NCBI RefSeq assembly: GCF_056712565.1
Contig: NZ_CM160072.1
Reading direction: 5' to 3' (one strand)
DNA: 64,000 bases
Under the pieces are notes generated by a model. The model was not told the DNA's origin and ran no database searches. It saw only the letters and a list, made by a program, of their open reading frames with translations. Both the position numbers and the translations under genes were made by a program. Below, piece after piece: positions 11,876-61,222 of the stretch (its first letter is position 1; each line of letters starts with the position of its first letter).

Positions 11876-13687
11876 TTAAAAAGTGATACAGGTTGCGCCC
11901 TGTTCGGCACCGGACAGTTTTTCACGCAAGGCGCTGAATAATTCACGTCCTGTTCCCACGCGTGACGCGCTCAGGTCAGGAATGTGCGGTTCGCGAGCAG
12001 CCAGTTCCGCTTCGTCTACCAGCAGCGTCAGTTCGCCTGTCTGTCCATTCACACGAATGATGTCCCCGTCGCGCACTTTTGCCAGCAGCCCGCCATCGTA
12101 GGCCTCTGGTGTTACGTGGATAGCTGACGGCACTTTACCTGAAGCGCCGGAGAGTCGTCCATCGGTAACTAACGCAATTTTGAAACACCGGTCCAATAAT
12201 ACACCAAGTGGCGGCATGAGTTTATGTAATTCTGGCATTCCGTTCGCTTTTGGCCCCTGATGACGGACAACAACGACACAATCGCGGTCCAGTAAACCCG
12301 CTTCAAAGGCCGGCATAACGTCATGCTGGCTTTCAAAAACAACCGCTGGCGCTTCAATCACCTGGTTCTCTACCGGCACGGCAGAGGTTTTCATAACCGC
12401 TCGCCCCAGGTTACCGCTTAACACTTTTGTCCCACCATGATGAGAGAAAGGTTGTTCGAAGGACGCGATCACATTGTTGTCGAGTGATTTTTCTGCCCCT
12501 TCCCGCCAGTCCAGTTCACCATTATTCAGCCATGGTTCAAGGGTATAACGAGACAGACCAAAACCTGCCACCGTATTGACATCTTCATGCAGCAGGCCTG
12601 CTTTGAGCAGTTCACGTACCAGAACCGGTACGCCACCTGCCGCCTGGAAGTGGTTAATATCGGCCGGACCGTTCGGGTAGAGACGTGCCATCAGCGGTAC
12701 AACATCAGAAAGGTCAGAGAAGTCATCCCAGTTAATCTGAATACCGGCTGCGCGCGCCATCGCCACCAGGTGCATGGTGTGGTTAGTGGAACCACCGGTC
12801 GCCAGCAGTGCAACGATACCGTTCACCACCACTTTCTCATCGATCATCTTACCGATCGGCATCCATTCATTACCATTACCGGTCATGCGCGTAACCTGGC
12901 GCGCAGCTGCAGCGGTCAAAGCATCGCGCAGCGGAGAATCCGGATGAACAAAAGAAGAGCCTGGCAACTGCATCCCCATAAACTCCACCACCATCTGGTT
13001 GGTGTTGGCAGTACCGTAGAAAGTACATGTTCCCGGCGCATGATAAGACGCGGCTTCTGACTCCAGTAATGCCATGCGGTCCACTTTACCTTCGGCATAA
13101 AGCTGGCGAATACGCACTTTTTCTTTATTTGGCAAACCGCTTGCCATCGGTCCAGACGGCACAAACACCGCAGGCAAATGACCAAACGACAGGGCTGCCA
13201 TGGTCAGACCTGGGACAATCTTGTCGCACACACCGAGAAACAGAGCACCATCAAACATGTTATGGGACAGCCCCACCGCCGCAGACATCGCAATCACTTC
13301 GCGGCTTAACAGCGACAATTCCATTCCATCCTGCCCCTGGGTGACACCATCACACATCGCCGGAACACCGCCCGCAACCTGACCAACCGCATTCGCTTCA
13401 TGCAGGGCTTTACGAATGATTTCCGGATAGTGTTCATAAGGCTGGTGAGCGGAGAGCATGTCGTTATAGGAGGTGATGATGGCGATATTGTTACGCAACA
13501 TGCTTTTCAAAGAGGCTTTGTCTTCTGGCTGGCAGGCAGCGAAACCGTGTGCCAGGTTACCGCATGCCAACTGCGAACGATGAACGGTCGAAGTTTTCGC
13601 TTGTTCTATCCGGGCGAGGTAAGCAGAGCGAGTCTCGCGCGAACGTTCAATGATTCGATTTGTTACGCGTAACAATTGTGGATTCAT
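11876..13687 (-). CDS. edd: Phosphogluconate dehydratase
   Basis: Start taken at internal ATG 13687 ([11 protein letters not shown]..., 603 aa) preceded by AGGAGCC; track ORF extends 22 codons upstream. Confidence 0.95.
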
Positions 13688-13808
13688 AAAGGCTCCTGAA
13701 ATTGAGTTGTCAGAGCAGGATGATTCACAACACGTTTCATTCAGAGGATTCATGACTGAAACGCCTGTAACCGGAGCTCATAGGGCAAAAACGTTTCAGT
13801 CAGTGTAA

Positions 13809-13843
13809 TAAAAAAAGCCTCGTGGGTGAATCCGCACGAGGCC
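13809..13843 (-). terminator. Intrinsic terminator downstream of zwf
   Basis: Minus strand reads GCCTCGTG-loop-CACGAGGC followed by TTTTTTT. Confidence 0.8.
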
Positions 13844-13921
13844 TGAAAGTGTAAAAATTGTTCTACAATCTGTGCAAGATCATGTTACCGGTAAAATAAC
13901 CATAAAGGATAAGCCCAGATA

Positions 13922-33606: not shown

Positions 33607-36036
33607 TTATGCCTGAACAGCTGGCTGATCAAACGCCGTTAACTTCGGCGCATTGCCCGTATATTTTTCGATATACACCAGCGCAGTGTTACCGGCACAG
33701 GCATTCGCCAGCTGCGAGCTGGGGATATCCGCCGTTAACACGTTCGCACTACCGTTTTTACACAAGCCATTTTCCAGATCTAGCCATGCACCTTCATGCA
33801 CGCATACCACGCCTTTTTTGATCCCGTCAGTCACCACCGCGCCTGTCAGAATCTGACCGCGCTTGTTCCAGACACGCACCAGATCGCCATTCGCAATACC
33901 AAAGCGAGCAGCATCTTCGGTGTGAATAGTGATTGGTTCACGATCGGCAACCGCATATTTTTTACGCAGTTCCGCATAGTTAAGCTGACTGTGTAAACGG
34001 TGTGCCGGATGTGCGGTCAGAAGCTGCAACTGCTTCTCGTCGGCGGTACCCTTCCACTCATCAGGCGCAAGCCAGGTTGGGTGTGCCGGGCAATCCTTAT
34101 AGCCAAATTTTTCCAGCGTTCTGGAGTAAATCTCAATTTTGCCGCTTGGTGTACCCAGCGCATTTTTCACCGGATCGGCGCGGAAATCACCATAACGAAT
34201 GTACTGTTCGTTCTTCTCGCTGCGGCGCATTTCGATCAGTTTATTTTGCTGCCAGAAGGCATTAAACATTGGCATCGTCACGCGTTGCGCACGCGCACCT
34301 TTCTGAGCGGCATCATAGAAAAATTTCAGCCACGCCATTTCATCTTTACCTTCGGTATAGATCTCTTTTCCGCCAGGTTTGAGTAATTCAGCAAGATCGG
34401 CAAACACGTCAAAATCGTTGCGCGCTTCAAATTGCGGAGCGACAGCCTGCTTCATCGGCACAATATGCTGGTTGCTGTAATCACCGGTCATCGTCAGGTC
34501 ATTGCGCTCAAACGATGTGGTGATCGGTAATACGATATCTGCATGTTTAGCAGCTGCGGTCCAGTAGCATTCAGAAACGACGATCATCTCCGGTTTCTGC
34601 CATGCTTTAATCAGACGATTAGTATCCTGGTGATGGGTAAAGTTACCGCCACCCGCCCACCAGATCATTTTGATATTCGGATACGTTTGTTCTTTACCGT
34701 TATGCTGATATTTGCCGCCAGGATTTTCCAGCGCATCGACGATACGGGCAACAGGAATCGCCGTAATTCCGCCATCATCAGCGGCCTCGCTGGCCTGTCC
34801 GGCAATCGCCGCAGACATTTCTGGTAGCACTCCGCCAACACGCGTCGGGTTGCCACCGTTGGAGTAATGATAAGAGAAACCAAACCCGCCGCCCGGTGTA
34901 CCAATCTGCCCTAACATCGCCGCCAGCGTCACCAGCATCCAGTGTTTCTGTTCACCATATTGCTGGCGCTGAATTCCCCAGCCTGCCATCAGCATTGTGC
35001 GATTTGCCGCCATCAGTTCAGCGAGTTTGACTATCTGCGCTTCCGGTACGCCAGTAATTTCCGCCGCCCAGGCCGCGCTCTTCGGCGTATTATCGCTCTT
35101 ACCTGTCAGATACTCTTCAAACTGCGGATACCCGGTAGTGTATTTTTCAAGGAACACTTTATCGTGTTTGCCTTGTGTCATCAGGGTATGCGCAATCCCT
35201 AACATCAGTGCCACATCGGTGCCCATATTCGGTGCGATCCAGGTGGCATTATCGCCAAAGAATTCGATGGTTTCGGAGCAGATAGGATCAATGGCAATCA
35301 CTGGTTTGCCAGATTTTTTCAGCTGATGGAAGTATTCCAGCCCTTGCTCATCGGTACTGCTCCAGGCAATTTTGAGCGTGTTCAGCGGGTTCATCCCCCA
35401 CAGCACCACCACCTGGCTGTTTTCCAGAATAAGCGGCCAGGAGGTCTGCTGTTCATACACCTCTACAGAACCGACCACATGCGGCATGATCACCTGTGCC
35501 GCTCCGGTTGAATAATCGCCGCTATGCCCGGAATAACCGCCCGCCAGGTTCATATAACGTTGCAGTAAGGTTTGCGCTTTATGCAACACGCCAGAAGAAC
35601 GCCAGCCGTAAGATCCGGCAAAAATGGCCGATGGTCCGTTAGCTTTACGAATACGATCGTGTTGTTCATGAATCAGTTTTAATGCTTGTTCCCAGCTCAC
35701 CTGTACATAGGTATCTTCGCCACGACCTTTCGCCGGTTGCAGTGGATTATCGAGATAGCTTTTTCTCACCATCGGATGCTGAATACGCGCCGTGGTGTGT
35801 ACCTGATCCGCCGCCGTAGACTGTAAGGAGTTCGGTATGGTTTTCGCCAGCGCGCCTGTCGAAGAAACAATCTTGCCGTCCTTCACTTCTACGTTCATCG
35901 CTCCCCAACGGCCCGCAGTGAGAATTTTGCCGCCCTTCTCTTCTGCCCATGCGGGTAGCGGTGCAGCCGATGTCACCACCAGCGTCCCTGCCGCAATACC
36001 GCTATGTTTAATAAATTCACGTCTTGTTAATGTCAT
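33607..36036 (-). CDS. torZ: TMAO / S- and N-oxide reductase TorZ (BisZ), molybdopterin enzyme
   Basis: Start taken at ATG 36036 ([13 protein letters not shown]..., 809 aa) preceded by GGGAGGAAG; twin-arginine signal. Confidence 0.93.
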
Positions 36037-59707: not shown

Positions 59708-61222
59708 TCAGGCAACTGCCTGGCTGACTTTAGGCATCGCAAGGCTCAGTGCCTGACGCTCATCTGCCTGCTCGTGTAACAATTCACCGGCGATTTCGCC
59801 TTCCCGCATCACCACAATCCGGTCGGCAACGCCGAGGACTTCAGGTAAGTCGCTGGAGGCAAACAGCACCGCCACACCCTGCGCCGCCAGCGCATAAATC
59901 ACGTTGTAAATTTCATGCTTAGCACCAACATCAATGCCACGCGTAGGTTCATCCAGCAAAATGACCTTCATCTCTTCCGATAACCAGCGGCCCAGAATGG
60001 CTTTTTGCTGATTTCCGCCTGAGAGATTCATGATCAGTTGCTCAGCGCCCGGCGTTTTGATGTTGAGCGAACGAATGTGGTGATCGGCATTGTTTTCTTC
60101 CCAACCGTTGTTGATTACACAACCGCCAAGCACATGTTTACGTCTGGCACTGATGTTGATATTGTCGCGAACGGAGTGCACGGGAATAATGCCTTCCGCT
60201 TTGCGATCTTCCGGGCAGAGCATCATGCCTGCGGCAATGGCGTGGCTCGGTTTACGAATATCGATCGGCTGTTGGTCGATATAAACCTGACCGGCGGTGA
60301 TTTGCGTCCCGCCAAACATGCCTTTCATTAATTCGCTACGCCCTGCCCCGACCAGACCAAACAGACCGACAATTTCTCCACTGCGAACCGCCAGACTTAT
60401 TGGCGTACGCACGCCTGGTGCTTTCACAGCATCAAGACGCAGCCGCTCCTCGCCATAACTACGCGGTTGCCAGCCGTAGATATCGCCAATGTCGCGCCCG
60501 ACCATCGCCTGCACCAGTGCGTCGTGGTCAACCTGCTGCATATCGGTAAAGGTTTTGACATAACGCCCATCTTTAAAGACGGTGATGGCATCGCTGAGGG
60601 CAAATATTTCTTCCATACGGTGAGAAACGTATAAGATCACCCGCCCCTCTTTTCGCAGTTCACGAATAACGCGGAAAAGATTGTCGATTTCGCGGGCAGA
60701 GAGGGAGCTGGTTGGCTCATCAAAGGCGATAATTTTGGCGTTACGCGCCAGCGCTTTGGCGATTTCAACCATCTGCCACTGACCAATGGAGAGATATTTC
60801 AGCGGCGTGTCCGGGTCAATATCCATACCAAGATGTTTAATTTGTAAACCTGCCTCATAATTCAGCAATGAACGATTCACAATGCCGCCTTTATGCGGCA
60901 GCTGGCCGAGATAGATGTTTTCCGCGACGGTCATTTCCGGCACGAGATGCAGTTCCTGATAAATAATCGCCACACCCGCGTTAAGTGCTGCGGTCGTGTC
61001 GGAAAAGGACATTTCCTGCCCATTAATCACTACAGAACCCGTGGTTGGCGCATAGTTTCCGCTGAGGATTTTTAAGAGAGTTGATTTTCCTGCGCCATTT
61101 TCACCCATCAACGCATGAACCTGACCGGCATAGCAGTCAAAACTAATATCCGTCAGCGCCTTAACGCCGGGAAACGTTTTACCGATGCCGCGAAATGAGA
61201 GATACGGGGTAGACTGTTGCAT
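59708..61222 (-). CDS. araG: L-arabinose ABC transporter ATP-binding protein (duplicated ABC domains)
   Basis: Start taken at [19 protein letters not shown] (504 aa); two Walker A motifs ([19 protein letters not shown]). Confidence 0.95.

Follow-up and report, generated by a model that had tools for sequence, protein, structure and literature searches.

How are the terminator of one gene, the promoter of the next and the sites for that promoter's repressors arranged between zwf and edd, and from which positions does the gluconate repressor GntR act on a promoter packed so closely against its upstream neighbor? We addressed this question in a 64,000-nt stretch of DNA (the window, 64 kb in the counts that follow), in which the genes at this locus run in the order hexR, zwf, edd, eda (kdgA) and purT. 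The genes zwf, edd and eda all lie on the minus strand, and the interval is therefore read on that strand; positions below refer to the minus strand except for the two operators, which are given for both strands. The sequence places the zwf stop codon at 13922-13924 and, together with the open reading frame annotation, the edd ATG start codon at 13685-13687; the Shine-Dalgarno sequence AGGAG of the edd leader, at 13693-13697, is evident in the sequence and in the alignment of related species. The equivalent K-12 coordinates are 1934605-1934838. The 401 bases around the interval are 100% identical to those of E. coli ATCC 11775 and Nissle 1917, and the same 401 bases are found in 5,425 of 5,426 complete E. 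coli genomes, where they are annotated as the zwf 3´ end and the edd 5´ end. The interval is thus quite probably the E. coli junction at which the zwf terminator meets P1, the gluconate-inducible promoter of edd-eda, together with the repressor sites of this promoter.

Much of this picture is already established, namely repression of edd P1 by GntR and Cra and the presence of a terminator after zwf, and curated databases are expected to list GntR and Cra sites here. An earlier note, made from the letters of the window, had described edd-eda as GntR-repressed, in agreement with the 11.2-fold increase in edd and 5.1-fold increase in eda in a gntR loss-of-function strain (PMC9648032). The same note read, on the minus strand, the order zwf stop, palindrome at 13882-13897, terminator, inverted repeat and edd start at 13687, and we found all of these elements in that order. 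What we add is incremental: a second GntR operator embedded in edd codons, a -35 element in the terminator loop, discrete classes of operator spacing, and the reassignment of the inverted repeat to Cra half-sites. For comparison among species, we aligned one genome per species from 24 Enterobacteriaceae in which zwf and edd are neighbors, separated by 223-266 bp, plus the window, giving 25 sequences in total.

The zwf terminator is an intrinsic terminator at 13810-13844, identified by folding and covariation, with a 10-bp stem carrying one bulge, a 5-nt loop, and then U7. The hairpin occupies 13815-13844 and the U7 tract 13810-13816; the earlier placement at 13809-13843 had recognized the element correctly and was off by one base. 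The predicted fold has a free energy of -18.9 kcal/mol (z = -6.4). Across the 25 species, 88% of the stem pairs are formed, with compensatory changes at six pairs, a result that none of 500 shuffles equaled, and this stem is the only helix with covariation support in the RNAalifold consensus. The consensus also contains a long-range pairing between the two GntR operators described below, which is trivial, arising from their common palindromic motif. A simple terminator and promoter scanner returned nothing for the interval. It missed the terminator because the hairpin loop was over its limit, and it missed the promoter because the hexamers fit only 8 of 12 consensus positions.

The same DNA that forms the terminator appears to carry P1. 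The hairpin loop, GGATTCACC, is near-invariant, being kept in 23 of 25 species (as is the TTCACC hexamer), while the stem that flanks it covaries. The hexamer TACACT, 17 bp from TTCACC, is unchanged in 25 of 25 species, and the run of T residues between the terminator stem and TACACT varies only from six to eight. It had been stated previously that the promoter position could not be fixed from sequence alone. Conservation does allow P1 to be placed, with a predicted -35 element, TTCACC, at 13825-13830, inside the terminator loop and 3´ arm, and a predicted -10 element, TACACT, at 13802-13807, after the T-run. In a genomic SELEX study, the zwf-edd spacer was bound by the RpoD holoenzyme, and TTCACC-17-TACACT was listed as the best promoter match in the spacer, with the hexamers given as a prediction (Shimada 2014; PMC3946193).

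From the position of the -10 element, we infer that transcription starts at an A 7 nt past it, at 13794-13796, which corresponds to 1934711-1934713 in K-12. A start at about 13795 would give a predicted leader of about 108 nt. Transcription start site data from glucose-grown cells (Kim 2012) contain no start at the predicted P1 position, which is what a repressed promoter should show; their only starts in this region are weak ones within zwf. The same study reports no Klebsiella edd start, and the supplements of Adams 2021, which cover transcription start sites and 3´ ends, hold no entry for edd or zwf. Two other promoter candidates were judged by eye. One, overlapping the upstream GntR operator with TAACAT as its -10 element, and another, near the ribosome-binding site, were both rejected given that the respective -35 regions are not conserved.

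Two species appear to provide a natural experiment that separates terminator function from promoter function. Escherichia sp. ESNIH1 and Pseudescherichia vulneris each have, between the zwf stop codon and the upstream GntR operator, a second terminator of canonical form (-17 kcal/mol, followed by U7). In both species, decay of the hairpin that overlaps the promoter has left a fold of only -3.6 kcal/mol (z about 0), and GGATTCACC, the T-run and TACACT are all unchanged. This pattern is what would be seen if the loop and the sequence after the stem were kept for a promoter, with the stem itself kept for the terminator.

Where, then, does GntR bind? The palindrome upstream of the terminator, which we refer to as O_up, lies at 13882-13897 on both strands. 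It reads ATTTTACCGGTAACAT from 13897 to 13882 on the minus strand and ATGTTACCGGTAAAAT on the plus strand, and its center is at about -94.5 relative to the predicted P1 start. The repeat finder reports 9-nt arms that are 89% complementary. O_up matches the published GntR consensus site, ATGTTACCCGTAACAT (PMC10450161), at 14 of 16 positions. Despite its name, the E. coli GntR protein belongs to the LacI/GalR family and not to the GntR family of regulators (PMC3877293). We scored the window with a GntR position weight matrix (PWM) trained only on the K-12 sites upstream of gntT, gntK and idnK/idnD, with the edd sites excluded. O_up obtained 19.5 bits, the highest score in the 64 kb and within the 18.8-21.2 bits of the training sites, and its core, TTACCGGTAACATGATCT, is unchanged in 24 of 25 Enterobacteriaceae. 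The suggestion that this palindrome is a GntR-type operator placed upstream of the terminator, which came with a call for just such a scoring of the interval, is thus well supported at the level of sequence.

O_up is followed by a 12-bp extension, GATCTTGCACAG, at 13870-13881 (about -75 to -86), which was recognized by its conservation. It reads GATCT.ACACAG in most species, with GATCT and CA unchanged across the 25-species alignment, and its 10 conserved bases include a Dam GATC site. We considered and rejected several identities for this element. A second GntR site at a 13-bp offset, in the style of gntK, finds no PWM match, and a CRP site, judged by eye, would be poor and asymmetric. An RNA element of the zwf 3´ UTR was also rejected, since the extension is still conserved in Escherichia sp. 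ESNIH1 and Pseudescherichia vulneris, in which zwf terminates upstream of it. Given its retention in these species, the extension is presumably an element that acts at the DNA level.

The second predicted GntR operator was found inside the edd coding sequence. This site, O_down, is a perfect 16-bp palindrome, TTGTTACGCGTAACAA, at 13660-13675 on both strands, where it covers edd codons 5-9 and is centered at about +128.5. It matches ATGTTACCCGTAACAT at 13 of 16 positions, and its PWM score of 19.2 bits makes it the second-best locus in the 64 kb, the next locus after these two operators reaching 13.6 bits. A search of the window for TGTTACNNGTAACA with at most one mismatch gave two matches, compared to 0.11 expected, and both flank the edd promoter. 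Between O_up and O_down (13676-13881), no GntR-like site was found, the best PWM score there being 1.9 bits, at 13720-13735. As no GntR site lies on the core promoter, GntR must exert its repression from the sites centered at about -94.5 and about +128.5.

The conservation of O_down is not explained by the Edd protein, as can be seen from codon usage. The core TGTTACG[C/G]GTAAC is unchanged in 25 of 25 species; within it, Leu6 is always encoded by the rare codon TTA and Val8 always by GTA (each 25 of 25), while the codons for nearby conserved Leu, Val, Thr and Arg residues vary. At codon 5, Leu (TTG) and Met (ATG) alternate, so that the DNA still reads xTG whichever residue is encoded. It is the fixed TTA and GTA codons, and the xTG retained across the swap between Leu and Met, that point away from a constraint on the protein. 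In Yersinia, Serratia, Erwinia and similar genera, the O_down palindrome is absent, residue 6 is Thr, Ala or Ser, and the codons vary.

The distance between the two operators provides a clue to how they may work together. We surveyed this spacing in the 25 genomes and in 120 metagenome contigs, which had been found with a gapped pattern restricted to spacings of 207-237 bp, and pooled the sequences into 46 lineages. The distance is 222 bp in the window. Among the 46 lineages, which are related and so not independent, it falls into classes of 209-214 bp (13 lineages), 219-223 bp (32 lineages) and 232 bp (one lineage), and no lineage has a spacing of 215-218 or 224-231 bp within the 207-237 bp range of the contig scan. 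The periodogram of the spacings is broad, with R = 0.76-0.79 for periods of 10-12 bp. In contrast to the distance between the operators, the distance from O_up to the -10 element is held at 86-88 bp in the 46 lineages, and all of the length variation is in the leader. Classes about 10-12 bp apart, corresponding to about 20, 21 and 22 helical turns, suggest that the two sites could form a GntR repression loop. The operator pair encloses a promoter whose -35 element lies in the zwf terminator loop.

We tentatively favor the reading that GntR acts through a phase-locked loop rather than by occluding the promoter, with operators about 20, 21 or 22 turns apart, one of them in edd codons 5-9. The choice between such a loop and a simple block to transcription is one that we infer from the arrangement of the sites, and the main rival deserves serious consideration. 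It is possible, though on balance rather unlikely, that no loop forms and that O_down is a transcriptional roadblock, with O_up having a separate role such as blocking zwf readthrough or upstream polymerase contacts. O_down is well placed for such a role, lying within the edd coding sequence and past both P1 and the zwf terminator in the direction of transcription. Roadblocks by LacI-family proteins within genes are established, PurR at purB being an example, and one of the lineages in our survey has an off-phase spacing of 214 bp. However, a pure roadblock does not predict spacing classes at intervals of about 10 bp with the intervening distances empty, nor would it readily account for an O_up that is as strong and as conserved as O_down and that sits at a fixed distance from the promoter. 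The two modes are compatible, and a roadblock may operate as well as a loop.

Taken together with the overlap of terminator and promoter, the looping reading leads to the following model. Transcripts of zwf would end at the strong hairpin and U-tract, and the same DNA would carry P1, with the predicted -35 element in the hairpin loop, the T-run serving as spacer, and the predicted -10 element directly after it. GntR would bind to two equally good operators, neither of them on the core promoter, and the two bound dimers would most likely bridge to each other, enclosing P1 in a loop of about 21 helical turns. O_down would probably also block elongating RNA polymerase, including polymerase that reads through from zwf. 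Gluconate would release GntR and so relieve this repression, and Cra bound to a site at +1, discussed below, would repress P1 at low levels of glycolytic effectors.

This arrangement can be compared with those of better-known systems. The GntR operators of gntT and gntKU belong to the same 16-bp palindrome family (TGTTAC-NN-GTAACA) and score in the same range as those of edd, and each regulated unit likewise has a pair of them. In the gntT pair, the two sites are separated by 141 bp, and looping was reportedly proposed for gntT by Peekhaus and Conway in 1998. The two gntKU sites lie near the promoter and overlap each other, offset by 13 bp; by contrast, neither edd operator is on the core promoter, one is in the coding sequence, and the two are 222 bp apart. 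Closer parallels are found outside the gluconate genes. In the gal operon (GalR at OE and OI) and in the lac operon (LacI at O1, O2 and O3), two operators flank the promoter and one of them is inside the first structural gene, as at edd, and the spacing in these systems is likewise compatible with whole helical turns. The putative edd loop of about 222 bp, a size taken from sequence alone, would be larger than the gal loop of about 113 bp. An operator of a LacI-family repressor well past the start of a coding sequence also has a precedent in the PurR operator in purB, which is similar in this respect to O_down. However, the PurR site at purB stands alone, whereas O_down is paired with a matching site upstream whose distance is conserved. 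For DNA looping, LacI and GalR assemble into tetramers (PMC3877293).

What is the function of the inverted repeat that lies between the terminator and edd? The repeat finder returned it as had been described, a perfect 11-bp inverted repeat at 13753-13802 with 28 nt between the arms. The left arm, TGACTGAAACG, is at 13792-13802 and overlaps both the last base of the -10 element and the predicted start. The right arm, CGTTTCAGTCA, is at 13753-13763 (about +33 to +43) and contains an inverted TGAAACG half-site. A third copy, TGAATGAAACG, which matches at 10 of 11 positions, is at 13733-13743 and is 91% complementary to the right arm, with which it could pair in the P1 leader. This third copy and the O_down palindrome were both in the repeat-finder output, though neither was mentioned in the earlier note. 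The heptamer TGAAACG occurs 10 times in the window, and three of these occurrences are within 66 bp here.

TGAAACG is the strong half of the published Cra motif, gcTGAAtCGaTTCAgc (PMC5888115), and most of the left arm is contained within a candidate Cra/FruR-like operator, ACTGAAACGTTTTTGC, at 13785-13800, with its center at about +3.5. As a reference set and for the Cra PWM, we used seven sites, those of fruB (two), pykF, pfkA, ppsA, pckA and aceB. The candidate site has three mismatches to the 16-mer consensus GCTGAAWCGWTTCAGC, compared to two to five for bona fide sites, and its PWM score of 12.2 bits ranks seventh in the 64 kb and is below the training range of 15-22 bits. The pattern TGAA[A/G]CG[A/T]TTTT is present at the same distance from the -10 element in 17 of 25 species and is degenerate in about a third. 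A review describes the edd-eda Cra sites as overlapping or following the RNA polymerase site (PMC4393010), and a Cra-like site near +3.5 agrees with this placement. We read the left arm as belonging to a Cra-like operator that sits on the predicted +1 and is partly conserved.

The edd site resembles the Cra operators of fruB, pykF and pfkA in having a strong half-site (G/C-TGAA-A/T-C-G) together with a degenerate second half, and glycolytic genes repressed by Cra typically have their sites, as is predicted here, at or after +1. It differs from these sites in being weaker (12.2 compared to 15-22 bits) and, in Escherichia, in being accompanied by two extra Cra half-sites, one of them inverted, which together make the 11-bp repeat. 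With the Cra PWM, neither the right arm nor the third copy scores as more than a half-site. We think that they are lineage-specific half-sites, which may assist Cra or may be neutral.

On the evidence available from sequence comparison, the inverted repeat as a whole is best read as Cra half-sites, not as an RNA stem and not as a GntR site. How much of it has a function is less clear-cut. There is a reasonable, though not predominant, chance that only the left arm is functional, as the Cra operator, and that the other two copies, like the perfect 11-bp match between the arms, are neutral and specific to a lineage. Perfect 11-bp inverted repeats are not rarer here than chance would give (three loci in the window compared to 1.3 expected), so that this one alone is unexceptional, and both extra copies reach no more than half-site scores. 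The right arm is also missing in most genera, broken in E. albertii, where it reads CGTTTCTTTCA, and polymorphic in E. coli, and the third copy is not conserved beyond E. coli and E. albertii in the 25-species alignment. The conservation of the repeat across Enterobacteriaceae, on which its earlier interpretation had been staked, is therefore lacking for the repeat as a whole. Yet each of the three copies keeps its TGAAACG core in all of the E. coli (five strains) and E. albertii sequences examined, despite variation in the flanks. Moreover, the inverted core of the right arm, GCG[T/A]TTCAG, is found at the same distance from the -10 element in the Escherichia, Citrobacter and Enterobacter groups, and only in these, and three of the 10 heptamers in the window lie within 66 bp here.

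The two functions that had originally been proposed for the repeat, a leader RNA stem and a second GntR operator, fare less well. A hairpin of the edd leader RNA, or alternative hairpins in which the right arm pairs either with the left arm or with the third copy, could in principle affect stability, translation or attenuation, and the repeat, if wholly transcribed, does fold at -20.4 kcal/mol (z = -4.2). We nevertheless consider an RNA role highly improbable. The predicted start is inside the left arm, and folding of the leader from that start, which had been suggested as a check, gives an unremarkable structure (z = -0.37). Across species, only 58% of the pairs form, a value reached by 474 of 500 shuffles, with no covariation, and RNAalifold gives no leader helix. 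The pairing is broken in E. albertii, and the variants within E. coli (CAGTCA to CAATCA or CACTCA, and TGAC to TGCC) are not compensatory. An Rfam search returned only a sub-threshold chance match. The other proposal, that the arms are a second pair of GntR operators bracketing the promoter, is scarcely tenable. It draws on the GntR repression of edd and on the span of the repeat, which brackets +1 to +43, but the GntR PWM gives about -4 bits over the arms, and the real operators are elsewhere, with the second one in edd codons 5-9.

These observations leave unchanged the accepted picture of edd P1 as a promoter under repression by GntR and Cra. The layout is nevertheless of practical interest. 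The edd-eda operon opens the way into the Entner-Doudoroff pathway, and it is a frequent target of metabolic engineers. As both GntR operators are outside the core promoter and one is in the coding sequence, edd can remain under GntR control after a simple exchange of the promoter, and recoding or truncation of the edd 5´ end would remove one of the operators. The overlap between terminator and promoter and the operator embedded in codons are also clean cases of DNA that carries two functions at once. When we searched the literature for the literal operator sequences, both were matched in recombineering primers only, and in the published eddp1::Ptrc primers, both GntR operators are retained in the homology arms.

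The terminator and promoter functions, which overlap at the gluconate-inducible edd promoter P1, are separated naturally in Escherichia sp. ESNIH1 and Pseudescherichia vulneris. In both species (L010:2215-2330 and L012:2215-2330 of the zwf-edd comparison), an additional canonical terminator follows the zwf stop codon, upstream of the GntR operator. The P1-overlapping hairpin has decayed to -3.6 kcal/mol in the two sequences, and despite this decay the P1 -35 element, the T-run and the -10 element are unaltered.

The bases GATCT.ACACAG (13870-13881), which adjoin the upstream GntR operator on its downstream side at about -75 to -86 of P1, are kept across Enterobacteriaceae and hold a Dam GATC site. 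This segment shows no likeness to GntR sites, and by eye is a poor match to a CRP site; an RNA element of the zwf 3´ UTR was also considered for these bases and rejected.

Within the edd leader, a 10/11 inverted repeat (13733-13763) is made up of the right arm of the 11-bp inverted repeat, a 9-nt loop and the third TGAAACG copy; the minimum-energy fold computed for the predicted P1 leader shows it as a hairpin. Its loop and flanks are the most polymorphic stretch of the edd leader within E. coli. The right arm also contains an in-frame ATG (13751-13753), which in a mechanical ORF list for this strain lengthens the edd ORF to 625 aa. Since K-12 and other strains carry ATA at this position, the ATG is not a conserved start.

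The highest-scoring match to the Cra PWM in the whole window, GGTGAATCGTTTCTGT (15884-15899; 17.9 bits, within the training range), lies within hexR/yebK, in its 5´ part, and precedes the zwf start codon by ~490 bp; zwf is Cra-repressed according to a review. Secondary matches, one Cra-like inside the araG coding region (59773-59788; 16.1 bits) and two GntR-like inside the torZ (34739-34754; 13.6 bits) and rsmF (728-743; 11.6 bits) coding regions, are probably due to chance.

In the primers published for replacing eddp1 with Ptrc (PMC4172795), the homology arms keep both GntR operators (13660-13675 and 13882-13897). Thus, the engineered edd promoter may still be flanked by GntR sites.
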